Source of the DNA: a virus
Taxonomy: Duplodnaviria > Heunggongvirae > Uroviricota > Caudoviricetes
IMG/VR virus record: IMGVR_UViG_2778261179_000013
Coordinates: 1-16,612 of that record
Length of the DNA stretch: 16,612 bases
Direction: 5' to 3' (one strand)
Shown in pieces: positions 892 through 16,612 of the stretch. Position 1 is the stretch's first letter. Every line of letters starts with the position of its first letter. The position numbers were made by a program, and so were the translations under genes. A model generated the notes under the pieces. That model searched no databases and was not told where the DNA came from. It saw only the letters and a program-made list of their open reading frames with translations.

Positions 892-910
892 TCCCTTTGT
901 GACACCTATA

Positions 911-946
911 AAAAAGGCGCTTCCCCATGCCGAGTAGCGCCTTTTT
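911..946. terminator. Hairpin flanked by A5 and T5 runs (bidirectional intrinsic-terminator-like); probably the fis terminator
   Basis: aaaaaggcgct (911-921) is the reverse complement of agcgccttttt (936-946), with a 14-nt loop. It sits between the MTase start and the fis-like remnant. Confidence 0.5.
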
Positions 947-970
947 AATCAAGCATTTAGCTAACCTGAA

Positions 971-988
971 TTAGTTCATGCCGTACTG
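971..988 (-). other. fis 3'-end remnant (encodes YGMN-stop) and putative att core / island junction
   Basis: The minus strand reads cag tac ggc atg aac taa = Q-Y-G-M-N-stop (stop at 971-973). Fis ends ...KKYGMN. The frame is broken one codon further upstream (tga at 989-991) and there is no fis-sized ORF in 892-1155, so only the last codons are present. Confidence 0.45.
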
Positions 989-1115
989 TCATATTAGCTG
1001 TTTTCATGCTTTTAGATGATTTTAATATTCATATAATAATCAATGTGTTGTATAAATTCATGCCTGTATATTGTTCCAGTGTTTTTCTTTGTTTATGCTA
1101 TTATGTAAGCAATTC

Positions 1116-1137
1116 TGTATAAACATTTGTATAAACA
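1116..1137 (+). promoter_or_regulatory. Direct repeat TGTATAAACA x2 about 20 bp upstream of int; candidate promoter or recombinase/IHF-type site
   Basis: tgtataaaca at 1116-1125 and 1128-1137, within an AT-rich leader; a related tgtataaa lies near 1049. Confidence 0.3.
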
Positions 1138-1155
1138 CTTTGGGCTGGGTGGTCT

Positions 1156-2379
1156 ATGGCTGGCGAACTTAACAAACTGAGCGACAGGAAGTTAAAGGGA
1201 TTACATGGTATCCCGGCCAGTAAGATTGAGTTCTATGCTGATGGTGCCGGGCTGAGCGCCAAGGTAACTAAAGTTGGTGGTATTAGCTGGGTGTTTACTT
1301 ACCGACTCGACGGGCAGAAGCTGCATCGTCTTACTCTGGGACGATACCCGGATATGAGCCTCAAAGAGGCCCGTTCTTCGCGTGATAAATGCCGCCAATG
1401 GCTGGCCTCAGGTAAAGATCCAAAGCACCAGTTGGCGCTGACCACTCAGGAAACGCTTAAACCGGTCACTGTTAAGGAAGCTATCGAATACTGGATACGC
1501 GAATATGCAGAAGAGAACCGCGCGAATGTTGAAAGGCACAAAGCGGAGCTGCGTAAACACATTTATCCTTATATTGGGAAAATGGCGCTCGCTGACTGCG
1601 AAACCCGTTATTGGCTTGACTGCTTTGACAGGATGAAAAAGAAAACGCCAGTTGCTGCGGGTTATGTGTTCCAGATGTGCAAGCAAGCCCTGAAATTCTG
1701 CCGGGTTCGTCGCTATGCTGTGAGTACCGCGCTGGAAGATTTAACAATTCCAGATGTCGGTAAAAAACAGGCAAAAAAAGACCGGGTATTAAACGATAAA
1801 GAGGCTGGCGATTTATGGGCTGCCATTACCTCTGGAACTTGCTTCATGCCTTACTACACCAGGCTACTGACAATCTTAATGGTGTTTGGGTGCCGAACGC
1901 AGGAGGCCAGACTGTCAGAATGGAGTGAATGGGATATGGATGCCTGGGTCTGGACAGTTCCCAAAGAGCACAGCAAGGGCGGCGAGAAGATTGTAAGACC
2001 TGTGCCGGATGCCATGCGCAAATTCATTGAAATACTGCATGATGAAACGAAATTATCCGGCCTTTTGCTTGGGTCGGTTAAAGGCAGTGAAGCGGTAAGT
2101 CAGTGGGGCCGCGGTGTTTATAAAAAGCTGGGGCATTCTGAACCATGGACACTGCACGATCTAAGACGAACTTTAGCAACGCATATGAATAATATGGGTA
2201 TAGCACCACACGTTGTCGAACAGTTGTTGGGGCACTCAATGCCGGGAGTTATGGCGATTTATAACCGTAGTCTGTACTTGCCTGAGAAACTGGATGCGTT
2301 GAATAAATGGTATGACCGTCTCGATATTTTGGCGGGTAATCACTCGAATATTGTTATTTTAAAGGCTGGTGAGAAATGA
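1156..2379 (+). CDS. int: Tyrosine recombinase, P4-type phage integrase
   Basis: 407 aa. N-terminal arm-binding-type region (GLSAKVTKVGGISWVFTYRLDGQKLHRLTLGRYP), catalytic region with HDLRRTLATHM (HxxR) and the LGHSMPGVMAIYNRSLY tyrosine motif. Confidence 0.95.
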   Translation: MAGELNKLSDRKLKGLHGIPASKIEFYADGAGLSAKVTKVGGISWVFTYRLDGQKLHRLTLGRYPDMSLKEARSSRDKCRQWLASGKDPKHQLALTTQETLKPVTVKEAIEYWIREYAEENRANVERHKAELRKHIYPYIGKMALADCETRYWLDCFDRMKKKTPVAAGYVFQMCKQALKFCRVRRYAVSTALEDLTIPDVGKKQAKKDRVLNDKEAGDLWAAITSGTCFMPYYTRLLTILMVFGCRTQEARLSEWSEWDMDAWVWTVPKEHSKGGEKIVRPVPDAMRKFIEILHDETKLSGLLLGSVKGSEAVSQWGRGVYKKLGHSEPWTLHDLRRTLATHMNNMGIAPHVVEQLLGHSMPGVMAIYNRSLYLPEKLDALNKWYDRLDILAGNHSNIVILKAGEK

Positions 2380-2678
2380 AAAAGATAAATAAAATGACCG
2401 AATTACCGAAATGGTTTTCATTGGACAATTACAATTCTATCAATGGGCTGAGTGATCTTGATTTAATTAATCAGTTAGCTATGAGAATGGAAGTTGCTAA
2501 TGATGATTTTGAATGGCTTGATACCTATCCCGGAGCAAGAAATGAGTTCGCTTCATTTATGGAAGAAAGATTTAGTAACCCAATTCGGCCACTGAGCGGA
2601 AAATTATTTGCAGAAAAAATAAAAAGAAAAAATATTCTGAATGGCAAATGGATTCCGTCGGAGGTGTTGAGCCTTTAA
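2376..2678 (+). CDS. Hypothetical protein (AT-rich cargo ORF)
   Basis: 100-aa ORF whose ATG overlaps the int stop (ATGA at 2376-2379). Markedly AT-rich compared with the flanking genes. No motif recognised. Confidence 0.4.
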   Translation: MKKINKMTELPKWFSLDNYNSINGLSDLDLINQLAMRMEVANDDFEWLDTYPGARNEFASFMEERFSNPIRPLSGKLFAEKIKRKNILNGKWIPSEVLSL

Positions 2679-3163
2679 GATTAATTGATGTGATGCAGTT
2701 GTCTAAGAAAGCCGCTCATTATATTGATGAAAATAAAATTAATCGCTCATTGCGTGGACAAAAAAGGTCTGTAAGTAAGACCATAAGCGATAATGATCAA
2801 ATGCATATTACTTTAGATTTGTCTTGGCCTGATGAAATTTTATTAAGCGATTTGGCTGCATTGTTGCCAATATGGCGAATGGATCTTGAAAGGAAAAGTG
2901 AAAATAGTTGTAAGTTAAGTAATAGCTGGAGTGTAATCAAAAAGAAAATATTCGATTGCAAGATATTGCCAATGTTAGACCTTATGGAGTGGGCTAAAAT
3001 TAACAATGCAACAATCACTAACAGAGTTTTATCTTTAGCCCTGTTTCCTAATGCAGAGTATGACGCCATTGGTATCGCTCAAACGATCAAACCGTTCATT
3101 AGAAATTTTTCCGCAGATTTTTCTATAGAAATATTAAAGCGCAAAGCTATGGATTCATTTTAA
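2648..3163 (+). CDS. Hypothetical protein (AT-rich cargo ORF); start uncertain (alternative ATG at 2693)
   Basis: 171-aa ORF in a different frame, overlapping the previous ORF by 31 nt just after an A-rich run (2606-2632). Either a separate gene or the distal half of a frameshifted gene. No motif recognised. Confidence 0.45.
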   Translation: MDSVGGVEPLRLIDVMQLSKKAAHYIDENKINRSLRGQKRSVSKTISDNDQMHITLDLSWPDEILLSDLAALLPIWRMDLERKSENSCKLSNSWSVIKKKIFDCKILPMLDLMEWAKINNATITNRVLSLALFPNAEYDAIGIAQTIKPFIRNFSADFSIEILKRKAMDSF

Positions 3164-3266
3164 TCGGGAAATCCATATAGAAATAATTAAAAAATATCTA
3201 ATAGTGAACCATGCTTTTTAATAGCAAATAATAGCCTCCACAAAACGTAGAAACAGTGGAGGCAAC

Positions 3267-3551
3267 ATGCAAAATATCACCTTTATCCCGCCAAATCCTG
3301 AGCAGCGCCGCACCCTTTTAGAGGAGTACGGCTTTAAGTTCGACCGTCGAATCCGTGAAGAAGAATGTAGCGAGATCACCAGCCTTTCCCGTTCCAGCCG
3401 CTGGAAGATGGAACAGCAGGGGCGCTTCCCTCCGCGCTGTCACTTTGGCCGCAATAGCTGTGCCTGGCTTCTTTCGGATGTGCTCTGGTGGGTTCGTAAT
3501 CCGCCAGCAGTAGAGAACGTCAATAACCCGTACAGCCGCAAATCTGCTTAA
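3267..3551 (+). CDS. alpA: AlpA-family phage transcriptional regulator (helix-turn-helix)
   Basis: 94 aa. EITSLSRSSRWKMEQQGRFPPRCHFGRNSCAWLLSDVLWW matches the AlpA pattern (tGlSRst.Y ... G.FP ... G.rsv.W ... eV..Wl). GGAGG lies upstream of the ATG. Confidence 0.7.
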   Translation: MQNITFIPPNPEQRRTLLEEYGFKFDRRIREEECSEITSLSRSSRWKMEQQGRFPPRCHFGRNSCAWLLSDVLWWVRNPPAVENVNNPYSRKSA

Positions 3552-3571
3552 TTAACTACAGGTAATCGAAT

Positions 3572-4378
3572 ATGGAAAAAATAACTGCCTTGGCTGGCAG
3601 CGGCCAAACTCACCCCGAAACCAGCCAGAAAGATATTTCCAGCGATAATTTTGCTGCCCGGATCCCTGTAACCATGAGCACTATTGGTGGGAAAGAAACT
3701 CAGTCTGTAAGTGGTCGTAAGCTGCATACGTTTCTAGCTGTAGGGCGAGACTTTACCACCTGGATGAAAGCACGCATCAAACAGTATGGGTTTGTTAAAG
3801 GGGTTGATTATGTAATTGTTGAAGATTTGAGCACCCCAAAACGGGGGAGCGCAAAATCTCGCCAACAAGTCGAGCACGATTACATTGTCAGCCTGAATAT
3901 GGCTAAAGAGCTTTCTATGGTTGAGCGCAACGCGCAAGGCAAGATGGCCCGCCAGTATTTCATCGACTGTGAAGAACGTCTGCGCCGCGTAGCACCAGAG
4001 GAACATGAGGCGGCGTTGTTGGGCTGGCGTAAAAATCGTGTAGCTGCCTGCGAAGATCATAAGAGTATGGCCGATGCAATGAAGGGCTATATCGAGCGCA
4101 CCGGCGACAGGCAGCACGGCTTTGCCTACAGCAATGAATGCTCGTTCCTGAATAGCCTTGTGCTGGGTATGCACCCGCGAGTGTGGGCGAAACAGAAAGA
4201 AATTCCAGTTAAGCTGGTGCGTGACCATATGAACGCCGATCAGCTGGCGCTGCTGGCTTATCTGGAAAGCCGTGATTGTGCTCTGCTGGATCTTGATACC
4301 CGTACGGCAACCCGTAAGGCGAAACTCACCGAACTGGCACAACGCTGGCTGGTTAAGCGTGTTGGAGGTGCTGAGTGA
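3572..4378 (+). CDS. Phage antirepressor-like protein (AntA-type N-terminal domain)
   Basis: 268 aa. SGRKLHTFLAVGRDFTTWMKARIKQYGFVKGVDYVIV resembles the AntA/AntB antirepressor N-terminal motif (sARdLH.fL ... F..W ... ygF.eg.Dy). The C-terminal half is unassigned. Confidence 0.55.
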   Translation: MEKITALAGSGQTHPETSQKDISSDNFAARIPVTMSTIGGKETQSVSGRKLHTFLAVGRDFTTWMKARIKQYGFVKGVDYVIVEDLSTPKRGSAKSRQQVEHDYIVSLNMAKELSMVERNAQGKMARQYFIDCEERLRRVAPEEHEAALLGWRKNRVAACEDHKSMADAMKGYIERTGDRQHGFAYSNECSFLNSLVLGMHPRVWAKQKEIPVKLVRDHMNADQLALLAYLESRDCALLDLDTRTATRKAKLTELAQRWLVKRVGGAE

Positions 4379-4708
4379 TTTTGCATAACTCAATCAGGGT
4401 TGCGCAGAATTTGAGCCGACGAAATTCGCACGCGCAAATCAAGCTCGGTGATATGCCGAGTTTGAACAACCGCGTACTTTTAACGTACGGACATAGCAAC
4501 CCATTGAATCATCTTAATTATCGCGAAATGCGAGAATTGGCGAGCAACGAACACGAACAGTATTCGGGTTCGCCTGAACATCAACACTGCTTAGGTTCAG
4601 AGGTTCCGACGAATAACGTAGAGAGCTGCAATGGCAGCGCATTTTTGCTCTACGAGGGAAATCAACAACGTACAGTTTTGTACCGTAATCCAGATTTGGC
4701 TTACGAGA

Positions 4709-4768
4709 GGGTAGTACCTCAAAGTCACGAGGTTAACAGGGTAGTAACTCATAGTTACCAGGTTAACC
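4709..4768. repeat. Tandem direct repeat, 2 x 30 bp (25/30 identical), each unit containing GTTAAC
   Basis: gggtagtacctcaaagtcacgaggttaaca (4709-4738) and gggtagtaactcatagttaccaggttaacc (4739-4768). The units carry different internal stems (ACCTC/GAGGT in unit 1, GTAACT/AGTTAC in unit 2). Confidence 0.8.
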
Positions 4769-4877
4769 GCGTCGCTAAAAGATACGCGGAAAGCAAGACC
4801 TCTTTAAGAGGGGCAGTTCAGTGCGTGGAGACCTACGAAATTTTCGTAGGTCACAGCATTACCGAGAGTAACCCTGT

Positions 4878-5063
4878 TCAGCTTTCAGATTCCGATCTGG
4901 CTTTCTTGCGTTGGCGGCGTTTGATCTCGCATTGCATGGCTGTAACGATAAATTGGGCAGTGCTTTCGCCTTGCTCTTTAACTTGTTCCATTGCCTCGAC
5001 AACTTCATGCGGGGCACGAGTTTGCAATTTTTGTGATTTTTCGTTCTTTGTTCCCGTCGCCAT
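4878..5063 (-). CDS. Ribbon-helix-helix (Arc/CopG/MetJ-like) transcriptional regulator, probable island repressor
   Basis: 61 aa from the ATG at 5061-5063 (minus), preceded by AGGAGA with a 7-nt spacer. QKLQTRAP-HEVVEAMEQVKEQ-GES-TAQFIVTAMQCEI fits the RHH beta-strand / helix A / G-x-S turn / helix B pattern. The supplied ORF track starts it at a TTG at 5084. Confidence 0.65.
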   Translation of the reverse strand: MATGTKNEKSQKLQTRAPHEVVEAMEQVKEQGESTAQFIVTAMQCEIKRRQRKKARSESES

Positions 5064-5081
5064 TACTAAGTCTCCTGATAT

Positions 5082-5190
5082 CAAGTGGAGTACAGAATAC
5101 CAGAAAAATAATGAAATAAAACACTTGAAGTGGATTCCACTTTGTATTTATAGTGGAGTCCACCTTGAAGGGGTTCACCTTCAAGATATA
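5082..5190. promoter_or_regulatory. Divergent promoter/operator region with interleaved inverted repeats (half-sites AAGTGGA / TCCACTT and CACTT / AAGTG)
   Basis: cacttgaagtg (5122-5132) and aagtgga-t-tccactt (5128-5142) are overlapping palindromes; agtggagtccac (5152-5163) and ccttgaagg plus caccttcaag (5161-5185) follow. The region lies between the RHH gene and the rightward operon. Confidence 0.55.
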
Positions 5191-5261
5191 GCGAAGCCCG
5201 GCAGTGCGCGAACACTAACCGGGCCTCTGACCACCAAGATAGTTAACGTATCGAGGCAGCT

Positions 5262-5450
5262 ATGAAAGATTATATCACACACCCGCAAGGGCGGAAGTCC
5301 TACACCTGGCGTTTTCTGGCGCTGAGCGCCATCGGTCGCAACGTCATTCACATCAAAGCTACCACCGAACGCGAAGCCCGTGAGCAATCACCGGCTGGCT
5401 GCGTGATGGTATTCGCTGGCCGTCTGCCTGTGGAGGTGCGCCATGCGTGA
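5262..5450 (+). CDS. Hypothetical small protein (first gene of the rightward replication operon)
   Basis: 62-aa ORF with GAGG 5 nt upstream of the ATG; overlaps the next ORF. Confidence 0.5.
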   Translation: MKDYITHPQGRKSYTWRFLALSAIGRNVIHIKATTEREAREQSPAGCVMVFAGRLPVEVRHA

Positions 5451-5637
5451 GCCAATCAGCTTAGACCAGGCAGAATACAAATCAGCGCTGGCTGCTTCAC
5501 TTTTCGAAACCATTCTGGAAAAAGCCTGTGCTGAGTGTTCGGAAACCCTGCTGAACCATATCTCACTGGCATGTGACCTTAATCAGGAAATTCACCGGGC
5601 ATTAATCGCCGAGCTGGGTATGGGAGATGCGAAATGA
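5443..5637 (+). CDS. Hypothetical small protein
   Basis: 64-aa ORF with GGAGG 6 nt upstream of the ATG; its stop overlaps the next start (ATGA at 5634-5637). Confidence 0.5.
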   Translation: MREPISLDQAEYKSALAASLFETILEKACAECSETLLNHISLACDLNQEIHRALIAELGMGDAK

Positions 5638-5852
5638 GACAGGTTCCTTTTGAAGTCCTGATGCACGCTGAAAATGCCCTTTCTGAAAGCGAAGGAGCCT
5701 ATGAGGTTCTCAGCATGTGGCTAGACAGTATTCCTGAAGGCGAGGAGTTCCACGGTGAAGCGTGCAAGGTAAGCGCAATCATGTCGCTGCTGCATAAATC
5801 TATCGGCGAGCTGGTGAAAGCGCGGGAGGCTTACAGTGAAAAACGCGCCTAA
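5634..5852 (+). CDS. Hypothetical small acidic protein
   Basis: 72-aa ORF with GGAGA upstream; overlaps the start of the replication gene. Confidence 0.5.
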   Translation: MRQVPFEVLMHAENALSESEGAYEVLSMWLDSIPEGEEFHGEACKVSAIMSLLHKSIGELVKAREAYSEKRA

Positions 5853-7605
5853 CGTGAAAACCCTCCCACGCGACAAAATGGAGGAGGCCATCATCTTTGC
5901 CGGAACAGGAGCATGGAAAGCAGCTCAGGATTACCAGAAAGGTAAAGATGAGCATGGCGATGAGGTGCCGCCGGTTGTTCTGGATCATACCCAGCTGGCG
6001 GAATTACCCCACCTGCGCATTGTTGATAAAGGACGCCGATTTGCCCGTGTCTGTCAGGCCGGACTTATCGAACAAAACCAAATCAGTATGATTGCCAATA
6101 AGTTGTGTGAGGCTGGCGTTACCAATGCTGAGTTTATCAACGAAAAAGGTGAGAAAGAGGACTGGACGCCATTAATGAAGCGTCTGGAAGACGAGCCCCT
6201 AATGGTGACTACGAGGGGTAGCGCTACGCCAGCGCTTAACCAGATGGGAGCCAGCCAGCGCGGGGAAGTTCTGCTTGCTCATTACGATGGCAATCTGGCG
6301 ATCCATGCTGATTCCGACACGGTTCATCATTACAACGGCGTGGTGTGGGTTCCGCTTTCGGATAAAGAGCTGCAGCGAGAAATGGCGCAAATTTTTATTG
6401 ATGCCGAAGTCGCCTATTCGCAGAACGCGATTAAATCCGCTGTCGATACAATGAAGCTGGGTCTGCCAGTGATGGGTAACACAGCCCGAAATCTTATTGG
6501 TTTCAGCAACGGGGTTTTTGATACCCGGTTAGGGCAATTTCGACCACATGATAAAAAGGACTGGCTTATCGTTGCGAGCGAATTGCCATTCAGCGAACCA
6601 GCAGAAGGAGAGACTCTGGCAACCCATGCGCCGAACTTCTGGAAATGGCTCCGCCGCTCTGTGGCGGATAATGACAGAAAATCAGACCGCGTACTGTCTG
6701 CTCTGTTCATGGTGCTGGCGAACCGGTACGACTGGCAGCTGTTTCTTGAGGTAACGGGGCCGGGCGGAAGTGGTAAAAGTGTTATGGCTGAGATCTGCAC
6801 GATGCTGGCCGGCAAAGCCAATACGGTATCGGCAAGCATGGCGGCGCTGGAGAACCCAAGGGAAAGGGCGCTGGTGGTTGGCTATTCGCTGATTATCATG
6901 CCGGATATGACCCGGTACGCTGGCGACGGCGCAGGGATTAAAGCTATCACTGGCGGGGATAAGGTAGCTATCGACCCTAAACACAAAGCGCCGTATTCAA
7001 CGCGTATTCCGGCAGTGGTGCTGGCCGTCAATAACAATGCCATGTCATTCAGCGACCGAAGCGGTGGTATTTCGCGTCGTCGGGTTATTTTTAACTTCTC
7101 AGAGGTGGTACCGGAAAACGAACGTGATCCTATGCTTGCCGAGAAGATTGAAGGTGAGCTGGCCGTTATCATTCGCCACCTGCTTACTCGCTTTTCCAGA
7201 CAGGACGAGGCCAAACAGCTTTTGCATGAGCAGCAGAAATCAGAAGAGGCGCTGGCCATCAAACGTGAAGGGGATTCACTGGTGGACTTTTGCGGCTACC
7301 TGATGGCTTCGGTCGTATGTGATGGCATGTTTATCGGGAACGCCGAGATCGTACCGTTCAGCCCGCGCCGTTATCTGTATCACGCTTATCTGGCTTATAT
7401 GCGGGCTAACGGCCTGAGCAAGCCGGTGTCGCTGATGAGGTTCGGCACGGATATGCCAGGCGCAATGGCTGAATATGGCAAGGAGTACCAGAAGCGCAAA
7501 ACAAAACATGGCATAAGATCAAACGTCACACTTCACGACGATTCAGAAGACTGGATGCCTATGTGGAATGATACTTCTCACAATACCGGAGAAAATCAAA
7601 AGTAA
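5836..7605 (+). CDS. Replication initiator / SF3 helicase of the P4 alpha (D5-like) family (PICI pri-rep-like)
   Basis: 589 aa. Walker A VTGPGGSGKS, a Walker B-like LIIMPDMT region, and a D5_N-like segment (IGFSNGVFDTRLGQFRPHDKKDW). GTG start at 5836 is preceded by GGGAGG with a 7-nt spacer. No EGYATA-type primase motif seen in the N-terminal ~300 aa. Confidence 0.85.
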   Translation: MKNAPNVKTLPRDKMEEAIIFAGTGAWKAAQDYQKGKDEHGDEVPPVVLDHTQLAELPHLRIVDKGRRFARVCQAGLIEQNQISMIANKLCEAGVTNAEFINEKGEKEDWTPLMKRLEDEPLMVTTRGSATPALNQMGASQRGEVLLAHYDGNLAIHADSDTVHHYNGVVWVPLSDKELQREMAQIFIDAEVAYSQNAIKSAVDTMKLGLPVMGNTARNLIGFSNGVFDTRLGQFRPHDKKDWLIVASELPFSEPAEGETLATHAPNFWKWLRRSVADNDRKSDRVLSALFMVLANRYDWQLFLEVTGPGGSGKSVMAEICTMLAGKANTVSASMAALENPRERALVVGYSLIIMPDMTRYAGDGAGIKAITGGDKVAIDPKHKAPYSTRIPAVVLAVNNNAMSFSDRSGGISRRRVIFNFSEVVPENERDPMLAEKIEGELAVIIRHLLTRFSRQDEAKQLLHEQQKSEEALAIKREGDSLVDFCGYLMASVVCDGMFIGNAEIVPFSPRRYLYHAYLAYMRANGLSKPVSLMRFGTDMPGAMAEYGKEYQKRKTKHGIRSNVTLHDDSEDWMPMWNDTSHNTGENQK

Positions 7606-7860
7606 TGGGAAAAGTGTTCACCACTATTCACTGTGGATAAAATCGTTTATATAACAGATATTTAAGGGGTGAACACTTTTTATTGAAGTGTTCACCAAGT
7701 ATTCACCTGTTCACCTTTAAAGGGCTTTTCTTTTAAAAGGTGAAGGGTTAGGGTGAACACTAGTGAATACTTAAAATTATAGTCTTCACCCTGTAACCAT
7801 ATGAATTTGAATGGAAAAAATGCAAAGGTGAACAGGTGAACACTTAAACGCATATTTTTT
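7606..7860. repeat. Iteron array and AT-rich tract; putative origin of replication (P4 ori/crr-like)
   Basis: At least 10 copies of GGTGAACA(CTT) or its reverse complement (AAG)TGTTCACC, e.g. 7612-7622, 7668-7678, 7686-7696, 7709-7716, 7751-7760, 7826-7833, 7834-7844, plus variants (tattcacc, gtgaatac, cttcacc), followed by T-rich runs at 7852-7866. Placement immediately 3' of the replication gene is typical for these satellites. Confidence 0.75.
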
Positions 7861-7878
7861 ATTTTTACGAGGCTGCAT

Positions 7879-8223
7879 ATGGAAATTTTAGGCAACCATA
7901 ACGACAAGTTTCACGGCATCAAATTTCTGCATAGTGCAATTGAAGAAATGAATGAGAAAGCTGAAGTAACTCTGACCGACTATCTGGCTCTTAGGGCTTT
8001 TGTTCTGGCTGAGCGAAGAGAAACTCAGGACTACATTGATGCAATGGATGAAACGTATGCTGATTTGCCCGATGATCTGCGTTCTTACATTGAGCTTCTT
8101 AATGACGTTGCCGCACAGCTATCAAATCCATCACGCTCAAATGGGAATTTAAAATCAATTATTTACGATGCGAGAATATCAAGCGGAAACGCCATGTCTC
8201 ACTGGTTCAGTGTTGATAGATAG
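7879..8223 (+). CDS. Hypothetical protein (AT-rich cargo, gene 1 of a two-gene cassette)
   Basis: 114-aa ORF with ACGAGG 6 nt upstream of the ATG. Acidic and predicted helical; no motif recognised. Compositionally distinct from the flanking replication and head genes. Confidence 0.55.
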   Translation: MEILGNHNDKFHGIKFLHSAIEEMNEKAEVTLTDYLALRAFVLAERRETQDYIDAMDETYADLPDDLRSYIELLNDVAAQLSNPSRSNGNLKSIIYDARISSGNAMSHWFSVDR

Positions 8224-8246
8224 TAAAATCTAAGAAGGGATAACTA

Positions 8247-9092
8247 ATGCGTACTAATGATGATTTACAGATAATCCGAAAGCATCTGGATGGTGAATTT
8301 GAACAGCGCCTGTTAGACGCTGCGATCAATAACCTTTTGGATGAAAATAATCAGCTTCGGTTCAGCAATTATGCCTATGCACTTAGAGAGCTATTCTTAC
8401 ACGTTCTAAAACGCATGGCACCTGATGAAAATGTTCAACTATGCGAGTGGTTTCCTGGTTTGAATGAAAGAGAGCAGGTTGCAAGAAAAGACTCTTACAA
8501 ATATATCATTCATGGTGGGTTAAGTGATGAATATGTCAGGGATGTACTTGATGTAAATATTGCCGGAGTAATTCCGGGATTGCGTGATGCGTTCTACTCA
8601 TTAAATAAATTTACTCACATAAGCGAAAAGATTTTTCCAATTAATGATGACGATGGCCTAAAAATGGTGGGAGAGGTTGAAGGTTGCATCGGAGCTCTTT
8701 TCACCAAGCTTGATGAGTGTCATAAGGAGATAATTAATAAGCTTTATGAAGCTGTGAGTGAGGCCGCGATACATAGTTCGATAACTGAAACTGTAACATC
8801 AATTGATATTTTATCGACACACAGCTCGGTTGATGAAGTGTATGTTGATGATGTGAAAATAGTAGAAATAAATGACTCTGAAGTAATTTTCTCTGTTAGT
8901 GGCTCTGTAGGTGTCGGGTTGCAATGGGGATCTAATTCCGATTTGCGAAATGACATAGGTGCTGTAGGTAGAGAAACATTCCCATTTACCTGCGAGGTGA
9001 GAAGTCCAGTGTATGCCCCTGAACGTTTAGAGTGTGATGAAGGGGCATTCCATGCAGATACTTCAAGTTGGTGGGAAGGATATTACGACTAA
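8247..9092 (+). CDS. Hypothetical protein (AT-rich cargo, gene 2 of a two-gene cassette)
   Basis: 281-aa ORF with AAGAAGGGA upstream of the ATG. Helical N-terminal region containing an R-x4-H motif (RELFLH) and a beta-rich C-terminal region. Followed by an intrinsic terminator. Confidence 0.6.
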   Translation: MRTNDDLQIIRKHLDGEFEQRLLDAAINNLLDENNQLRFSNYAYALRELFLHVLKRMAPDENVQLCEWFPGLNEREQVARKDSYKYIIHGGLSDEYVRDVLDVNIAGVIPGLRDAFYSLNKFTHISEKIFPINDDDGLKMVGEVEGCIGALFTKLDECHKEIINKLYEAVSEAAIHSSITETVTSIDILSTHSSVDEVYVDDVKIVEINDSEVIFSVSGSVGVGLQWGSNSDLRNDIGAVGRETFPFTCEVRSPVYAPERLECDEGAFHADTSSWWEGYYD

Positions 9093-9128
9093 CAAGTGTA
9101 AATTATTCGTCCTCGCGTTTATTAGTGC

Positions 9129-9160
9129 TTAGCCCGATAAAATTCGGGCTTTTATTTATT
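9129..9160 (+). terminator. Rho-independent terminator after the cargo cassette
   Basis: Stem agcccg (9131-9136) / cgggct (9145-9150) with an 8-nt loop, followed by tttatttatt (9151-9160). Confidence 0.6.
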
Positions 9161-9324
9161 ATTTTCATGTATATGTTGAGAAGTGGCACTCAGACGTGAG
9201 CCGCCACTGGCCGTTAAATCAAGCTGTAGCGAGTACAGCCTGTGGGATGCAGAAAAAGATTTAACGGCCTCCCCTCCAAGCGCTGGTTTCACGTCTCTAC
9301 GTTAATTGATACGGAAACCACTCC

Positions 9325-10491
9325 ATGAAGAAACTACTCGAATTACGCCAGCAGAAAGCCACACTCAAAACCCAGATGCGTTCCATGCTGGACAAAGCCG
9401 ACACCGAAAAGCGCAGCCTGAACGAAGAAGAGGGCAAAAAGTTCGATGAACTCCGCGCCCAGGCTGATGCGCTTGAAGTTGAAATTACCCGCCTCGAAGC
9501 CGTCGCCGACGATCAGCGCAATCTGCCTGGTACTTCCGTTGAAGGTGAGCTAGTAAGCAACGACGAGCTGCGTCACTACATTATGACCGGTGATACCCGT
9601 TCTCTCTCCACGCTGGTGCAGGCTGACGGCGGTTATACCGTTATTCCTGAACTGGACAAAGAGATCATGCGTCAGTTGCAGGATGATAGCGTGATGCGCT
9701 CCATCGCAACGGTAAAGACCACCAAAACCAACGAATACCAGAAACTGGTATCTGTGGGCGGCACTACCGTTAAGCGCGGTACCGAAGGCGAAGCGCGTAC
9801 CGAAACCAGCACGCCGAAGATGGAGCGTGTTGATATCAAACTCAACCCGATCTACGCCTATCCGAAAACCACTCAGGAAATTCTCGACTTCTCTGAGGTG
9901 GATATTCTGGGCTGGCTGTCTTCTGAAATTGCCGACACCTTCACCGCTACCGAAGAGAGCGACTTTGTGAACGGCGACGGTGATAAAAAATCCAAAGGGT
10001 TCCTGTCTTACCCTCGCGCGGCCACAGCCGATAAAACCCGCCCGTTCGGTACGCTGGAGAAGATGGAAGCTGCTGACGTTTCCTCTGATGGCCTGATCGA
10101 CCTGCTGTATAAGCTGAAAGCCAAATACCGCAAAAACGCCGTATGGGTGATGAACTCCAATACCGCGGCCAAACTGCAAAAGCTGAAAAACGGCAACGGG
10201 GATTACATCTGGCGAGATCGTCTGGTTGCCGGTTCTCCCGATACGCTGCTGGGCCGTCCGGTTCAATATCTCGAAACCATGCCAGATGCGGAAGCAGGTG
10301 AAGCGTTCCTTGCTGTGGGCGACTTCAAACGCGGCTATTTCATCGTGGATCACACCACTGGTGTGCGTACCCGTCCTGACAACATCACCGAACCGGGTTT
10401 CTACAAGGTACATACCGATAAATACCTGGGCGGCGGCGTGGTGGACTCCAACGCCATCAAGGTGCTTGAGCTTTCCGGCTCCGGTTCCTGA
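9325..10491 (+). CDS. Major capsid protein, HK97 family (with N-terminal delta/scaffold-like coiled coil)
   Basis: 388 aa. N-terminal coiled-coil region (LELRQQKATLKTQMRSMLDKADTEKRSLNEEEGKKFDELRAQADALEVEITRLEA) and HK97-MCP-like core blocks (GGYTVIPE ... AVWVMNSNTAAKLQKLKNGNGDYIW ... LLGRPV ... GDFKRGYFIVDH). Confidence 0.9.
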   Translation: MKKLLELRQQKATLKTQMRSMLDKADTEKRSLNEEEGKKFDELRAQADALEVEITRLEAVADDQRNLPGTSVEGELVSNDELRHYIMTGDTRSLSTLVQADGGYTVIPELDKEIMRQLQDDSVMRSIATVKTTKTNEYQKLVSVGGTTVKRGTEGEARTETSTPKMERVDIKLNPIYAYPKTTQEILDFSEVDILGWLSSEIADTFTATEESDFVNGDGDKKSKGFLSYPRAATADKTRPFGTLEKMEAADVSSDGLIDLLYKLKAKYRKNAVWVMNSNTAAKLQKLKNGNGDYIWRDRLVAGSPDTLLGRPVQYLETMPDAEAGEAFLAVGDFKRGYFIVDHTTGVRTRPDNITEPGFYKVHTDKYLGGGVVDSNAIKVLELSGSGS

Positions 10492-10539
10492 TTTGACGTT
10501 TGAGGGGCTTAGGCCCCTTTTCTCCTGTGGAGTCCAACA

Positions 10540-11100
10540 ATGAAAACAATTGATTTTGAAATCCGCACCTCCGATCTGAGCGCCAGTAACAAAAAGCTGG
10601 TGGGCTATGCCGTGCGCTGGAACAGTCTCTCTGAAATTATCTGGGACGAGTTCCGCGAGCAGTTTGCGCCGGGAGCGTTTAAAGACAGCCTGGCATCAGG
10701 TAGCGATGTGCGTGCGCTGTACGAGCATAACTATACCCAGCTGCTGGGCCGCACTAAATCCGGAACGCTGGTGCTGTCCGAAGACGATACCGGGCTGCGC
10801 TTCGAGCTGACCCCGCCGAATACCCAGCTTGGTAACGATGTGCTGGAGCTGGTGGAGCGTGGTGATATCTCCGGCATGAGCTTTGGTTTCCGGGCGCTGA
10901 AAGAGGCGTGGGATATCGGCCAGTCTCCATACCTGCGCACTGTTACCGCAGCCGAACTGCGGGAGATTACCGTTACCTCTATGCCTGCTTATCCTGAGTC
11001 TGGCGTGGAAATCGCGCACCGTTCGCTTTTCTCCCAACATCCTGAACTGCGCCGCGCTGGCGATAACCGTCGCCGCTGGGCTGAATTAGCGGGGCTCTGA
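10540..11100 (+). CDS. Prohead maturation protease, HK97 family (S78-like)
   Basis: 186 aa. LVGYAVRWNS ... FAPGAFKDSL ... LYEHNY ... GMSFGF fits the HK97 prohead protease pattern, including the candidate His and Ser residues. Confidence 0.85.
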   Translation: MKTIDFEIRTSDLSASNKKLVGYAVRWNSLSEIIWDEFREQFAPGAFKDSLASGSDVRALYEHNYTQLLGRTKSGTLVLSEDDTGLRFELTPPNTQLGNDVLELVERGDISGMSFGFRALKEAWDIGQSPYLRTVTAAELREITVTSMPAYPESGVEIAHRSLFSQHPELRRAGDNRRRWAELAGL

Positions 11101-11101
11101 T

Positions 11102-12337
11102 ATGTGGAATATCTGGCCGTTTGGCCGCAAGTCTGAACCCTCTGAGCAGCGCAGCATGACCATTGATGAATTTCTGGCGATGGCAGGGATTCCAAATACC
11201 GGATCAGGCGAGTATGTGTCTGCGGGTACTGCGGAATCTCTGCCGGCGGTCATGAACGCCGTATCAGTTATCAGTGAGGCGGTGGCAACAATGCCATGCT
11301 ATCTCTACCGCGTCCGTAATGATAATGGTCGTGAGGCGCGAGAATGGCTGAGTAATCACCCGGTGGATTTTCTCCTGAACGAGCAGCCGAACGACTGCCA
11401 GACGCCTTATCAGTTTAAACGCACGATGATGCGCCATTGTCTGCTGAACGGTAACGCCTATGCGGTGATCCAGTGGGGCCGCGACGGCCAGCCGCAATCC
11501 CTGCACCCGTATGCGCCGGGGGCGGTTGTTCCTGAGCGTATCGGCCAGCATAAGTACAAATACACCGTTACAGAGCCGTTTACCGGGGCTGTGCGCACCT
11601 ATCTACAGGAAGAGATTCTGCACCTGCGTTACTCCACCGATGATGGCTTTCTGGGGCGTTCGCCTATTACTACGTGCCGTGAGGCGCTGGGGTTAGGTCT
11701 GGCCCAACAGCGCCACGGTGCCAGCATTATGAAAGATGGCATGATGGCGGCGGGCGTCGTCACTACTGCTGAATGGCTCGACAGCGTGAAGGGTAAGCAG
11801 GCTCTGGACGCACTGGAGCGCTACAAAGGTGCCAGAAATGCCGGGAAAACGCCGATCCTTGAAGGTGGCATGGATTATAAGCAGCTGGGCATGAGCAATC
11901 AGGATGCCGAATGGCTGGCCTCTCGTCGCTTCACCATTGAAGACATTGCCCGCATGTTCAACGTGTCGCCTATCTTCCTGCAGGAATACAGCAACAGCAC
12001 CTACAGCAATTTCAGCGAAGCGAGCCGCGCCTTTCTTACCATGACGATGCGCCCGTGGCTGGCGAACTTCGAACAACAAATCAAATCTGCGCTGCTGGTG
12101 GCCTCCCCAGTCCCAGGAACCCGTTATCAGGTGGAGTTTGACTCTGCTGACCTTCTCCGCGCCACGCCAACCGAACGTTATGCCACTTATGAGCGCGGTA
12201 TTAAGAACGGGATCATGAACCCGAACGAAGCCCGAGAGCGTGAGGGGATGCCACCGCGTGAAGGTGGTGACGAATTCAGCCAGGCATGGAAGCAGGAAGT
12301 GAAGATCAGCAAAGACGGCAAGGAAGGTGACGCATGA
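11102..12337 (+). CDS. Portal protein, HK97 family
   Basis: 411 aa. Conserved blocks LLNGNAYAVI, GFLGRSPI, FTIEDIARMFNVSPIFLQE and NPNEAREREGMPP match the HK97-type portal pattern. Its start is 2 nt after the protease stop. Confidence 0.9.
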   Translation: MWNIWPFGRKSEPSEQRSMTIDEFLAMAGIPNTGSGEYVSAGTAESLPAVMNAVSVISEAVATMPCYLYRVRNDNGREAREWLSNHPVDFLLNEQPNDCQTPYQFKRTMMRHCLLNGNAYAVIQWGRDGQPQSLHPYAPGAVVPERIGQHKYKYTVTEPFTGAVRTYLQEEILHLRYSTDDGFLGRSPITTCREALGLGLAQQRHGASIMKDGMMAAGVVTTAEWLDSVKGKQALDALERYKGARNAGKTPILEGGMDYKQLGMSNQDAEWLASRRFTIEDIARMFNVSPIFLQEYSNSTYSNFSEASRAFLTMTMRPWLANFEQQIKSALLVASPVPGTRYQVEFDSADLLRATPTERYATYERGIKNGIMNPNEAREREGMPPREGGDEFSQAWKQEVKISKDGKEGDA

Positions 12338-12672
12338 GAGCCGGGGGGCTGAGAAGCCGCGTCACTATTCGGGTATTCACTACCCACAGGGAGCCGTCCG
12401 GTCAGGTTGTTCAGGTCTGGGAAGACGGGGAAACCATATGGGCTGAGGTTAAGGGGATCAGTGGCCGAGAGTTAATGGCGTCAGGTGCCGAGGTTGCCGA
12501 AGCGACGATCCGCGTTTGGGTGCGTTTCCGCCGTGATATTACCGCAGCCAACCGTCTGAAAGTGCTTACTGGCCCGTTTGCTGGCAGCACTCTCAATATT
12601 ATCGGGCCTCCTATTCCTGATTCGGAAGGTACCCGGCTGGAAATTCTCTGCAAGACAGGAACGGAAAAATGA
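12334..12672 (+). CDS. Head-tail adaptor / head closure protein (SPP1 gp16-like)
   Basis: 112 aa; RVTIRVFTTHREPSGQVVQVWEDGETIWAEVKGISGRE fits the head-tail joining family pattern. ATGA overlap with the portal gene. Confidence 0.7.
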   Translation: MRAGGLRSRVTIRVFTTHREPSGQVVQVWEDGETIWAEVKGISGRELMASGAEVAEATIRVWVRFRRDITAANRLKVLTGPFAGSTLNIIGPPIPDSEGTRLEILCKTGTEK

Positions 12673-12962
12673 CAGCAGAAATCACCCTGGATGAAGCAAA
12701 GCTGCATTGCCGTATTGATGATGATTACGAAGATACGTTGATACAGGCGTACATCGATGCGGCGCTGGAGGTTTGCCAGAAGCATATCGGCAAGCGGTTT
12801 GATAACGGGCTGGAGTTTACGCCAGCTATCAAGATTGGCTGTCTGATGTACGTATCTCAGCTGTACGAGTACCGCACGATGATTGGTGATACCGACGCCA
12901 AAGAGATACCGATGGCTGTCTCTGCGTTGTGGTCTGTCTATCGTGATGTGGGGGTGTACTGA
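12669..12962 (+). CDS. Head-tail connector protein (gp6-like)
   Basis: 97 aa; ITLDEAKLHCRIDDDYEDTLIQAYIDAALEVCQKHIGKR ... YEYR fits the gp6-like connector pattern. ATGA overlap with the upstream gene. Confidence 0.7.
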   Translation: MTAEITLDEAKLHCRIDDDYEDTLIQAYIDAALEVCQKHIGKRFDNGLEFTPAIKIGCLMYVSQLYEYRTMIGDTDAKEIPMAVSALWSVYRDVGVY

Positions 12963-13405
12963 TGCCGTGGCAACCACTACGCCGGTGCAATGAGCCTGGA
13001 TGTAATAAACGGGTGAAGTCTGGCAAGTGTGACGAGCATAAGCGGGATGCCCGCCGACAAAGCGACAGCCGAAGAGGTACGCGAACAGAGCGTGGTTACT
13101 CCAACCGCTGGGGCGAATACCGTCGTCATTTTCTAAAAGCTAATCCGCTGTGTGTCCATTGTCTCAAGGCTGGCGTCTATGCATCGGCAACTATCGTCGA
13201 TCACATCATCCCTATCGAGGGTGAAGCTGATGTGCTGTTCTGGCCCGCCAGTAATCACCAGTCGTTATGCGCTGCCTGTCATGGACGGAAGACAACCACA
13301 ACAGACCCGGTGACGAAGCAGCAGCGTAAAGCCGGTAAGTTCCGCGAGCAGGAAGAAGCAGCACGTCATCGCACCGACTGGATCTATGAGGCAAACAATG
13401 ACTGA
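12962..13405 (+). CDS. HNH endonuclease (packaging-associated)
   Basis: 147 aa. Cys-rich N-terminus (CNEPGCNKRVKSGKCDEH) and an HNH core (CVHC ... DHIIPIEGEADVLFWPASNHQSLCAACHGRKT). Position next to the terminase genes is typical of HNH-cos packaging systems. Confidence 0.85.
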   Translation: MPWQPLRRCNEPGCNKRVKSGKCDEHKRDARRQSDSRRGTRTERGYSNRWGEYRRHFLKANPLCVHCLKAGVYASATIVDHIIPIEGEADVLFWPASNHQSLCAACHGRKTTTTDPVTKQQRKAGKFREQEEAARHRTDWIYEANND

Positions 13406-13550
13406 GCAGGAACAGCAGCGGCTGATTAGTGGGCTGATAAAGCAGCGTGAGTCATGGCAACCAGCCAGACAGAGAGCGCATAAGAAGCCCGTAGCAAAGC
13501 GCATGAGCCAGCGTGACCGGGAGCTTATGGAATGCTTTCGCAACCGCTGA
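13398..13550 (+). CDS. Possible small basic protein (50 aa), unannotated in the ORF track
   Basis: The ATG at 13398 overlaps the HNH gene end and the frame is open to the TGA at 13548-13550, giving MTEQEQQRLISGLIKQRESWQPARQRAHKKPVAKRMSQRDRELMECFRNR. Below the track's length cut-off; low support. Confidence 0.3.
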   Translation: MTEQEQQRLISGLIKQRESWQPARQRAHKKPVAKRMSQRDRELMECFRNR

Positions 13551-13680
13551 CAGGCCGAATGGACGGGGTGGGGGAGGTTTTAAAGACAAACCCCTCTCAG
13601 CGAGGAACCACCCGCCCCCTCAAATTTTTACGCACGGTGATTTTTTTGAAAATAAAACGCGACGGAAACGAGAAATTTTT

Positions 13681-14037
13681 ATGGCAAGACCACCCAAACC
13701 GCCAGCTTACCTTGATGAGTTAGCTGCGCAGCAGTGGAAAGCGAAGGCGAAGCAACTGGCGGAGCGCGGGGATTTGACTCCCGCCGACTGGAACAACCTT
13801 GAGCTTTTTTGCGTCAACTATTCGATGTACCGCAAAGCCGTGGAAGACCTTGCCAGCCGTGGGTTCAGCATTGTTAACAGCCAGGGCGGTGAGAGCCGAA
13901 ATCCGGCGCTGAGCGCAAAGGCCGATGCTGAAAAAATCATGATTAAAATGTCGTCGCTGCTGGGCTTTGATCCGGTAAGCCGCCGCCGGAACCCGGTGGA
14001 AACGGAGGAGGAAGACGAGCTTGACCGTCTGGAATGA
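13681..14037 (+). CDS. terS: Terminase small subunit (P27-family-like)
   Basis: 118 aa from the ATG at 13681: MARPPKPPAYLDELAAQQWKAKAKQLAERGDLTPADWNNLELFCVNYSMYRKA ... The track ORF from 13513 adds an implausible Gly-rich N-terminal extension, so the internal ATG is preferred. Confidence 0.8.
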   Translation: MARPPKPPAYLDELAAQQWKAKAKQLAERGDLTPADWNNLELFCVNYSMYRKAVEDLASRGFSIVNSQGGESRNPALSAKADAEKIMIKMSSLLGFDPVSRRRNPVETEEEDELDRLE

Positions 14038-15682
14038 GTACGCAAACGCGATAAAAACGGGCGAAATTCCGGCCTGTAAGCGCGTAAAACAGGCCGTGGA
14101 AAGGTACTTTTCAGACCTGAATGACCCCCGTTATGTGTTCGATACGGCGACCGTAGAGCGGTTTATTGCGTTCTCGCGGCTCTGTCCTCACGTCAAAGGC
14201 CCGTTGCGCGGGCAGTCTATCGAGCTGGAGCCGTGGCAGCAGTTCGCCTTTGCTAACCTGCTGGGCTTTAAAGTCAGGGAGTCAGGCCGCCGGAAGTATA
14301 GCAGCGCCTTTATTGAGGTGCCGCGCAAGAATGCCAAATCCACCGTGGCCGCCATGCTGGCTAACTGGTTTCTGGTGATGGAGAAGGGCCAGCAGGATAT
14401 CTACACGGCGGCGGTAAGCCGGGATCAGGCCCGAATCGTGTTCGACGATGCCCGCCAGATGTGCCTGCTGTCAAAACCGCTGAAAAAGCGCGTCAGTATT
14501 CAGGCACACAAGGTCATTTTCCCGAAGAGCAACAGCCTGTTAAAGCCGCTGGCGGCAAAAGCGGCCACCATTGAAGGGACTAACCCCAGCCTGGCGATTG
14601 TCGATGAGTACCACCTTCACCCGGATAACGGCGTTTATTCCGCGCTTGAGCTGGGTATGGGCGCCCGTCCTGAGGCAATTTTGTTCGCCATCACTACCGC
14701 CGGGAGTAACGTAGTCTCGGCCTGTAAGCAGCATTATGACTACTGCTGCCAGATTCTGGCAGGGGAAGAGAGCAACGATTCTCTGTTTGTCCTGATATAC
14801 GAGCTGGACGACGAAATTGAGGTTGAGCAGCCGGAAATGTGGATTAAGGCCAACCCTAACCTGCATGTGTCTGTTGACGCAGCGAAGCTGGAATCCACCA
14901 TCCAGAAAGCGCGGGGGATACCGTCGCAATGGGTGGAAATGCTCACCAAACGTTTCAATATCTGGTGTCAGGGCTCCACGCCGTGGATGGGGGCTGGCGC
15001 GTGGGATGCCTGTGCACTCGACTATAACGAAGAAGAGCTGGTCGGAATGGAGTGTTATGCCGGGTTTGACCTGTCCTCAACCAGCGATATCACCAGCGTG
15101 AGTTACGCTTTCCCGTTTGACAGGGAGATCCGGCTTCTGACCCGCCACTATCTACCGGAAGCGCAACTGCTTAACGTCGCCAACAAAAACCGCGCCATCT
15201 ATCGCCAGTGGGTAAAAACGGGCTGGATACGCACCACACCCGGCGACTGTATCGACTATGACCGCATTCGTGACGATATCCTGCGCGATGCTGAAACCTT
15301 CAATATTCGGCTGGTGGGCTTTGATACGTGGAACGCTACGCATCTGCGCACCCAGCTACAGGGTGCGGGCCTTGATGTTGAGCCATTCCCGCAAACCTAT
15401 CTCAGGTTCAGTCCGGTAGCGAAATCCTTTGAAGTGTTTGTTAACCGCAGGGTAGTGCGCCATCGCGGTGATCCGGTTCTGGCCTGGGCGATTGGTAACG
15501 TGGTGATGGAGTCCGACGCCAATGCCAACATCAAGCCCAACAAAAAGAAATCCTCCAACAAGATAGATCCGGCTGTGTCTGCGTTAATGGCGTTTGGCAC
15601 CTTCCAGGCTGAGCACGAGGATTTTGCATTTGATATGAGTGACAGTCACAAACAACGGCTAGCTGATTTCAATGGGCTTTGA
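14021..15682 (+). CDS. terL: Terminase large subunit
   Basis: 553 aa. Walker A-like EVPRKNAKST, Walker B-like LAIVDEYH and a C-terminal nuclease-type region. Apparent TTG start at 14021 overlapping the terS end, so the start codon is uncertain. Confidence 0.9.
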   Translation: MTVWNEYANAIKTGEIPACKRVKQAVERYFSDLNDPRYVFDTATVERFIAFSRLCPHVKGPLRGQSIELEPWQQFAFANLLGFKVRESGRRKYSSAFIEVPRKNAKSTVAAMLANWFLVMEKGQQDIYTAAVSRDQARIVFDDARQMCLLSKPLKKRVSIQAHKVIFPKSNSLLKPLAAKAATIEGTNPSLAIVDEYHLHPDNGVYSALELGMGARPEAILFAITTAGSNVVSACKQHYDYCCQILAGEESNDSLFVLIYELDDEIEVEQPEMWIKANPNLHVSVDAAKLESTIQKARGIPSQWVEMLTKRFNIWCQGSTPWMGAGAWDACALDYNEEELVGMECYAGFDLSSTSDITSVSYAFPFDREIRLLTRHYLPEAQLLNVANKNRAIYRQWVKTGWIRTTPGDCIDYDRIRDDILRDAETFNIRLVGFDTWNATHLRTQLQGAGLDVEPFPQTYLRFSPVAKSFEVFVNRRVVRHRGDPVLAWAIGNVVMESDANANIKPNKKKSSNKIDPAVSALMAFGTFQAEHEDFAFDMSDSHKQRLADFNGL

Positions 15683-15718
15683 TAGTGCTTGAACTTTTCA
15701 AATTGTCACTGTAATTCT

Positions 15719-16612
15719 TTAATATTCGACTTGCTGAGCCGGAACGGAGTTTAAAATCCAGCATTCTTGATGGACAAAATTTATATTCAGAGCAGATAAA
15801 TATTGTTGCTCATATGCTCTGTATATTAATAGTTTTGTTTGATTCTGATCATCCAATTCATAATCCGTTTTTGCAGTGCTCCATTGGGAGTGAAGCATTA
15901 CTGATTGAACAAAGGAGTTCATCTTTATACTCATGTTCATTACATTTGAAGATGTTCCGGCATATTTGTATGAGTCGATTACCGTGTTTTTTCCATCGCC
16001 ATCAACATCGAAAGGATTGGATATCCACTTGAATGTATTTAACAAAAAAAGATTGGCGACCCAAGTGTAATCGTTGCCGTTTATATTTTCTGTGGTAGAA
16101 GAGCTAATGCTTTCATGGAGATTGGTTGCCCCCATGAAAATCGCCTCAGGATCTATCTTTCCGTCAGACCTTCGCTGCCTTCCGGCTGCTAAGTAATTGA
16201 AAATGCCAGCATAACACTGCCCCATATATACTATCGCTCTATCTAAATCTGGCGTTGTTTTTATGCGATTAAGTAACCTATAGGGCGGTATTGGTGGGAG
16301 GGCGTCCAATCCATGCATACTTCCATGACCCGTTATAAATATAACTATATTATCATGGGTATTATCGTCGCAATCCGAAAAAAATTCGCTGCTTCTTTTT
16401 ACATTATATTGATGGTTAGTGCCAACTGAGATTAATTTTTGTATATTTCCTCTGTTGTTTCCATCTATATAAATAAAAATATCAGCAGGATTAATTCCAC
16501 GATTTTCTAAGCAGTAAATCCCAAAGGCCAGATCAGAAACATGCCGATCTTCCGGCTCACTGCTGGAAGCCAAAAAAAGAACCCATTTTGTTTTGTCTGC
16601 TAATAGCCCCAT
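15719..16612 (-). CDS. Caspase-like (clan CD, C13/C14-type) peptidase-domain protein; N-terminus at the window edge, possibly partial
   Basis: 297 aa on the minus strand with stop at 15719-15721 and ATG exactly at 16610-16612. Clan CD layout: hydrophobic strand ending in His-Gly (NIVIFITGHG) followed about 38 residues later by a strand ending in the catalytic-type Cys (AIVYMGQCYAG). AT-rich and convergent with terL. Confidence 0.6.
   Translation of the reverse strand: MGLLADKTKWVLFLASSSEPEDRHVSDLAFGIYCLENRGINPADIFIYIDGNNRGNIQKLISVGTNHQYNVKRSSEFFSDCDDNTHDNIVIFITGHGSMHGLDALPPIPPYRLLNRIKTTPDLDRAIVYMGQCYAGIFNYLAAGRQRRSDGKIDPEAIFMGATNLHESISSSTTENINGNDYTWVANLFLLNTFKWISNPFDVDGDGKNTVIDSYKYAGTSSNVMNMSIKMNSFVQSVMLHSQWSTAKTDYELDDQNQTKLLIYRAYEQQYLSALNINFVHQECWILNSVPAQQVEY

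Follow-up and report, generated by a model that had tools for sequence, protein, structure and literature searches.

The window (the whole stretch of 16,612 nucleotides analyzed here) opens with yhdJ, an adenine-specific DNA methyltransferase gene on the minus strand (positions 1–885) that forms the host left flank according to the RefSeq annotation of two reference loci, NZ_CP067265.1 (L001) and the island-free L002; the list of open reading frames lengthens this gene to a GTG at position 891. A minus-strand hairpin at 911–946 has an 11-bp A/G-C-rich stem, interrupted by a single unpaired base on either side, with a 3-bp stem-loop at its tip and a U-run behind it (z = –3.1 relative to shuffled sequences in the folding analysis). 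The sequence of this hairpin is identical to the stretch 3΄ of fis in L002, and we assigned it as the native intrinsic terminator of fis, split from its gene and left at attL. At 971–985, the minus strand reads TACGGCATGAACTAA and translates to Y-G-M-N-stop (TAC GGC ATG AAC TAA). In the surrounding frame (...I-stop-Q-Y-G-M-N-stop), the similarity to Fis stops at the Tyr codon; because the Lys of Fis is replaced by Q and the second codon before Tyr is a stop, no fis-sized open reading frame is present here. The initial annotation had read this segment as the C-terminus of Fis, adjoined by a terminator hairpin and yhdJ, with a frame broken upstream and no fis-sized reading frame. This description was borne out in each respect by the translation, the list of reading frames, the fold, the RefSeq annotation of yhdJ and the alignment of island-free genomes, which passes into fis.

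The match to island-free genomes ends at 985. Positions 986–1155 (plus strand) comprise the integrase-proximal (P΄) arm of attP, which is also the upstream region of int. The int gene (1156–2379, plus strand) points into the island and encodes a tyrosine integrase of 407 aa with the Pfam domains Arm-DNA-bind_3 (1.3e-18) and Phage_integrase (1.9e-17), an arrangement that fits the P4 type (N-terminal DUF4102 and C-terminal catalytic domain) and upholds the earlier classification of this protein. Its catalytic residues were located by eye as the R in CRTQE, the H-x-x-R in HDLRR, the H in LLGH and the Y in AIYNRS. Near position 2626, the window lacks one A relative to NZ_CP067265.1, and a 262-aa DUF6387 gene beside int is split into two overlapping reading frames (2376–2678 and 2648–3163), which may reflect either a real frameshift or a homopolymer sequencing error.

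Further into the island, the plus strand carries an alpA-family regulator gene (3267–3551; Phage_AlpA, 4e-10) whose product is presumed to be an excision factor, an AntA/AntB antirepressor-family gene in the so-called Bro zone (3572–4378; AntA, 1.5e-23), a replication module with a D5-type primase/helicase (5836–7605; D5_N, DUF5906 and Pox_D5) and an HK97-type capsid and packaging module (9325–15682). According to Pfam and RefSeq annotation, the last encodes the major capsid protein, prohead protease, portal, head completion protein, connector, an HNH protein, TerS and TerL (Phage_capsid, Peptidase_S78, Phage_portal, Phage_HCP, Phage_connect_1, HNH, Terminase_4, and TerL_ATPase with TerL_nuclease). 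Neither the RefSeq annotation of the whole L001 island nor the Pfam and PHROG hits included tail, holin or lysis genes. With head genes, TerS/TerL, Int, AlpA and a D5 primase all found by Pfam, the element has the gene content of a capsid-forming PICI (cf-PICI), and the window represents most of such a satellite. Between the replication and capsid modules, the plus strand also carries a reading frame at 7879–8223 and, downstream of it, a gene for a 281-aa protein (8247–9092) with pP_pnuc_1 and pP_pnuc_2 (‘pPIWI-associating nuclease’) domains, which PADLOC matched to Aga_Nuclease (7e-84); no Argonaute gene was found anywhere in the island beside this protein.

We aligned a probe spanning positions 700–1400 against 5,426 complete E. 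coli genomes. The flank in this probe aligned in 5,424 of them, and in the island-free genomes the alignment coming from yhdJ ended exactly at window base 985, where the annotated gene is fis. For example, the empty site of strain FDAARGOS_1277 reads ...agctaacctgaaTTAGTTCATGCCGTAttttttcaattttttacg... and continues into fis and then dusB; its junction, ...cctgaaTTAGTTCATGCCGTAttttttcaa..., runs on into fis. The fis-yhdJ region was uninterrupted in 5,309 genomes and interrupted in 117, and the junction of this particular element was detected by the probe search in only 19 complete E. coli genomes. The island is thus inserted at the 3΄ end of fis, as had been proposed from the window alone, and in its island-free relatives the match to base 985 leads into an intact fis beside yhdJ.

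The best match to the window was NZ_CP067265.1, which is 99.886% identical over the full length (18 mismatches and one 1-nt gap). In this genome, the 16-nt sequence ATTAGTTCATGCCGTA is found at the equivalent of positions 970–985 and again 16,386 bp further on. The second copy (L001 18646–18661) ends an intact, annotated fis gene, to which it contributes four codons plus the stop; yhdJ is followed in this genome by the island, two minus-strand accessory genes, the intact fis and dusB, in that order. The right junction lies about 740 bp past the end of the window; the last 743 bp of the island, attR and fis were seen only in L001, so that these parts are demonstrated in a near-identical genome rather than in the source of the window, whose right end would be expected to read ...TTATCATTAGTTCATGCCGTATTTTTTCAATTTTTTACG... 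joined to intact fis. The initial annotation had regarded the short segment as one copy of the att core and had predicted a repeat past position 16612 joined to an intact fis beyond the far end, which is what L001 contains. The Y-G-M-N-stop fragment is accordingly an att site and no pseudogene, and we are confident that positions 970–985 (minus strand, the five codons given above plus one T) are the attL identity block, with the crossover lying within this direct repeat, of a capsid-forming PICI of the published fis PICI type, which measures 16.4 kb and has integrated at the final fis codons.

The differences between the window and NZ_CP067265.1 are unevenly distributed: 13 of the 18 mismatches fall within the first 535 bp, in yhdJ, and the island part (986–16612, 15.6 kb) differs by five bases and one indel. 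Either the same island is therefore present in two host backgrounds or recombination has affected the flank. No tRNA gene and no Rfam family was returned by scans of the full window. No alternative integration target is therefore hidden there, and integration into a tRNA gene or another known RNA gene was excluded.

Islands of this kind have been described previously. A survey in NAR Genomics and Bioinformatics (2023; PMC10111431) mapped first 2,642 and later 3,565 fis islands, concluded that they are PICIs and not prophages, reported the consensus block TACGGCATGAACTAA followed by a terminator, and cited experimental evidence that Kpn47.16.fis of K. pneumoniae BAA-2146 excises within this block after mitomycin C; this Klebsiella relative is the one for which, according to that paper, excision and replication upon induction were shown. 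Positions 970–985 are identical to the block TACGGCATGAACTAAT published for Eco254.16.fis. Moreover, the supplementary attL of Eco254.16.fis corresponds letter for letter to window positions 895–1037, and its attR to L001 18579–18661; the same attL string is given for Eco254.16.fis, Eco3265.17.fis and Eco3299.16.fis, and the same attR string for the first two. The accession CP067265 itself is absent from the supplements of PMC10111431, although the element lineage is present there by sequence. The phenomenon, the target site, the repeat and the element lineage are therefore already known, and the interpretation in the initial annotation, given these matching blocks and att strings, was correct but not new. 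Its further suggestion that the 3΄ end of a protein gene is a notable target did not hold: in view of the 3,565 fis islands of PMC10111431 and the PICMI satellites, which also occupy the end of fis (PMC10803314), we rejected the idea that this is an unusual site for an integrase.

The element shares with the fis PICIs of PMC10111431 the target, the block (found at both ends, at attR through L001), an inward-pointing int beside attL together with a Phage_AlpA gene, and the 16-kb size class. Its layout, from int-alpA through AntA and the D5 primase to the genes from capsid to TerL, agrees with the order of Integration, Bro, Replication and Late zones given for PICIs in the same paper. We found no essential difference from this group; the cargo genes for 297-aa and 100-aa proteins are rare, occurring together with this island in 1 of 5,426 complete E. 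coli genomes. Like the prototype cf-PICI, EcCIEDL933 (PMC10085698), the element possesses Int, AlpA, primase, capsid, protease, portal, two head-tail joining proteins, HNH, TerS and TerL and lacks tail and holin genes; cf-PICIs build capsids of their own and use the tails of a helper phage. The integration site differs from that of EcCIEDL933, and the sampled O157:H7 genomes (H42–H44) have an empty fis-yhdJ site. PICMI satellites of the Vibrionaceae (PMC10803314) are likewise found at the end of fis and possess 17-bp direct repeats, int, alpA, a primase and cargo beside fis. However, they measure about 6–7 kb, lack genes for capsid and terminase and occur only in Vibrionaceae, whereas the present element measures 16.4 kb, has a full set of head and terminase genes and resides in an E. 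coli background, so that the target site alone is shared. In integration at the 3΄ end of icd (mentioned in PMC10111431) and in tRNA genes, attP likewise carries a replacement 3΄ end that leaves the gene intact; here, in contrast, the replaced coding part amounts to five codons, and it is mainly the 3΄UTR and terminator that are replaced.

At the right end of the island, the satellite far arm contributes its own terminator directly 3΄ of the restored fis stop (L001 18585–18645; z = –3.8). Both fis terminators, the native one and that of the satellite, have loops of more than 8 nt and were for this reason missed by a consensus terminator scan; folding revealed them. With the satellite terminator following the restored stop, fis therefore keeps its full coding sequence and exchanges its 3΄UTR and terminator. 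The satellite terminator and 3΄UTR have diverged from the native fis 3΄ region, of which they are a copy with 74% identity over 42 nt. In two further elements, L020 and L026, the latter a related 15.3-kb cf-PICI at the same site in E. coli with a 62% identical integrase, the satellite-side stretch is nearly identical to the host fis 3΄ region for more than 60 nt. The attP arm has therefore apparently been copied from a fis locus and has diverged to a variable extent. Comparison of attB, attL and attR defined the identity block of 16 nt. In the complete element L020, attL contains TTAG and attR contains TCAG, and strand exchange must therefore lie inside GTTCATGCCGTA.

The nature of the left fragment and of the element was weighed against three other explanations. 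Five codons are a short match, and a 15-mer with up to three mismatches is expected about 0.5 times per window, so that a decayed fis duplicate, a pseudogene or a chance occurrence unrelated to site-specific recombination might come to mind. This explanation is refuted by the exact match, which adjoins some 985 bp of host flank that aligns in 5,424 genomes and ends precisely at the repeat, by the exact 16-nt direct repeat that bounds the island, and by 20 loci of other genera in which this block keeps a constant distance from int. We assign the explanation practically no probability. The resemblance of the satellite P arm to the native fis 3΄ region, together with the identity of 60–80 nt through the terminator in other fis PICIs (L026; Eco10764.15.fis), would suit entry by homologous recombination through the shared terminator region without the integrase. 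Perfect identity in the present case, however, extends over 16 nt, less than RecA-dependent exchange requires, thousands of independent islands have their junction at these very nucleotides, and the Klebsiella relative mentioned above was shown experimentally to excise within the block (PMC10111431). Such a route is therefore extremely improbable.

A defective prophage that retained its head genes after losing tail and lysis functions would also contain the complete HK97-type head and terminase set observed here, and related head modules were found in 1,193 of the 5,426 E. coli genomes. Nevertheless, the order of int, alpA, Bro, primase and late genes with an inward int is the PICI layout of PMC10111431, the size of 16.4 kb and the gene set agree with the core genes listed for cf-PICIs in PMC10085698, the annotation of L001 includes no tail or holin gene, and independent relatives of the same size and order occupy the same site (L026). 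We thus consider a prophage remnant very unlikely and interpret the element as a cf-PICI integrated at fis.

We extended the comparison to relatives of the integrase. All 20 loci encoding integrases with 65–97% identity carry GTTCATGCCGTA at 170–203 bp upstream of int, and the linkage of int to the core is hence conserved across Enterobacter, Klebsiella, Pluralibacter, Brenneria, Pectobacterium, Rosenbergiella, Rahnella, Proteus, Erwinia, Serratia, Xenorhabdus, Yersinia and Scandinavium as well as one unclassified Enterobacteriaceae MAG. The closest integrases (97% identity), located at the end of fis in Enterobacter hormaechei (L003) and Klebsiella pneumoniae ATCC 13883 (L004), adjoin an attL with the host TGA stop (TCAG) in place of TAA. 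At the nucleotide level, L003 showed mosaic identity of about 95% to the island over int, alpA-antA and the capsid-portal region. A smaller element of 9.5 kb occupies the same fis core in E. coli (L027; NZ_CM176344.1, 10525–20015) with a 53% identical integrase; it encodes a VapE-type primase and a 762-aa protein annotated as a phage tail tape measure protein. In PMC10111431, the fis islands were concluded to be without tail genes, for which two minor-tail Pfam families only were tested.

A two-gene cargo cassette is located between terL and attR. The first gene (15719–16612, minus strand) encodes a 297-aa protein, and the next gene, just past the window (L001 17927–18229, minus strand), encodes a 100-aa partner (phrog_30138). 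The 297-aa protein returned no match in Pfam, PADLOC, PHROGs or PDB sequence searches; its 272 homologues, each about 296 aa long, are spread across Proteobacteria, and H96-G97 and Q132-C133 are invariant among them. An alignment-based AlphaFold model (pLDDT 89) matched legumain and GPI-transamidase in Foldseek (E = 1.6e-8, TM about 0.5), and it was the only usable model, the single-sequence model being uninformative (pLDDT 35). The modeled structure suggests a clan CD caspase-like fold, and we refer to the protein as a predicted legumain/caspase-fold protease. A homologous pair of 100-aa and 296-aa proteins (61% identity) was found at the edge of other E. coli satellite-like islands (L028–L030) and, in some cases, between the two halves of a prophage capsid-protease gene; in L031, the 296-aa gene alone was called. 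We regard the cargo pair as a candidate anti-phage system.

In the integrase-proximal arm, we identified a doubled motif with a 12-bp period, TGTATAAAC-ATT-TGTATAAAC-A, at positions 1116–1137 (plus strand; TGTATAAACATTTGTATAAACA); from there, 19 bp remain to the start codon of int. The far arm contains an exact second copy of its 20-nt core, and the TGTATAAAC motifs are positioned at –96 and +136 from the core centre. We surveyed this feature in 22 elements, namely the window and 21 integrase relatives. Among the window and 20 related loci, an exact 12-bp-period tandem starts between +135 and +137 relative to the core centre in 18 of 21. The strict search for exact matches had overlooked three Xenorhabdus loci and L027, all of which were recovered by relaxed or motif searches: the Xenorhabdus loci carry the tandem at +135 with one or two mismatches (relaxed and motif searches), and L027 carries a doubled GTTGTCA at +148 (motif search), compared with +135 to +137 in the other 21 of the 22 elements. 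Only 14 of 2,000 shuffled arms gave any such tandem. Furthermore, all four complete elements contain a second, co-oriented copy in the other arm, 232–234 bp away.

The doubled motif is conserved in position and lineage-specific in sequence, with at least six classes: TGTATAAAC, GTGGGGTA, GTGTAGTC, GTGTATCAC, GTGCAGTCA and GTTGTCA. The class tracks the arm-binding domain of Int better than the catalytic domain. For example, the integrase of L010 is 78% identical to that of the window in the catalytic domain and 61% in the arm domain, and its motif differs; the integrase of L012 is 64% identical in the catalytic domain and 78% in the arm domain, and its motif is the same. These sequence comparisons point to positions 1116–1137 as a putative arm-type integrase binding site, although AlpA or another protein could be the ligand. 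In the aligned arms, a second block, CTGTATATTGTTCCAGTG (1064–1081, plus strand), was recognized by eye as conserved across several motif classes. It is present in the window and in L003–L009, L012, L013 and L016–L018, with variants in L010 and L011, and is common to the Escherichia, Enterobacter, Klebsiella, Pectobacterium, Proteus and Xenorhabdus types despite their differing doubled motifs; the other lineages show repeated GTTCA/GTTCG words at that place. Possible roles of this block are the binding of a host factor or of AlpA, or a contribution to the int promoter.

A comparable arrangement is known from HE-PICIs, whose integrases are related and fall in the same clade. According to PMC10111431, the attP of HE-PICIs contains a co-oriented doubled motif with a 12-bp period in each arm, TGTATTGC, at about –81 and +132 from the reference points of that paper, and the authors report that this motif was not found in the attPs of fis PICIs. 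The targets of HE-PICIs are prophage late genes and not fis, and the sequence of their motif differs from those described here. On balance, these comparisons favor a model in which fis PICIs share the arm-site architecture of HE-PICIs with different words, and in which arm specificity may have been swapped modularly with the core target remaining constant. The lineage-specific doubled arm motif is the one addition of the present analysis to the literature.

Taken together with the gene content and both junctions, the motif suggests how the site may work. The circular attP would consist of the last four codons and the stop of fis, flanked on one side by the satellite's own fis-type terminator and on the other by the integrase-proximal arm, and the P4-type integrase would recombine it with the chromosomal end of fis. 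In such a complex, the N-terminal domain of Int may hold the doubled motifs that flank the core at distances of about 96 and 136 bp, and the catalytic domain would exchange strands inside GTTCATGCCGTA. After integration, fis is still complete, the satellite providing its final codons and a substitute terminator at attR, and the original Y-G-M-N-stop codons, 3΄UTR and terminator are stranded beside yhdJ at attL. AlpA and a helper phage would presumably drive excision and packaging, and the predicted excision products are an attP containing …TTATCATTAGTTCATGCCGTACTGTCAT… (ttatcaTTAGTTCATGCCGTActgtcat) and the attB cctgaaTTAGTTCATGCCGTAttttttc.

The main value of identifying the fragment is a correct annotation of this locus, comprising an att site, an intact fis and a cf-PICI. 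The element provides a clean example of a satellite that replaces the 3΄UTR and terminator of a global regulator gene and preserves its coding sequence. The doubled motif offers a direct handle for binding and swap experiments, and, if the proposed modular exchange of arm specificity is true, it could explain how related integrases with the same core avoid cross-reaction between their attPs.
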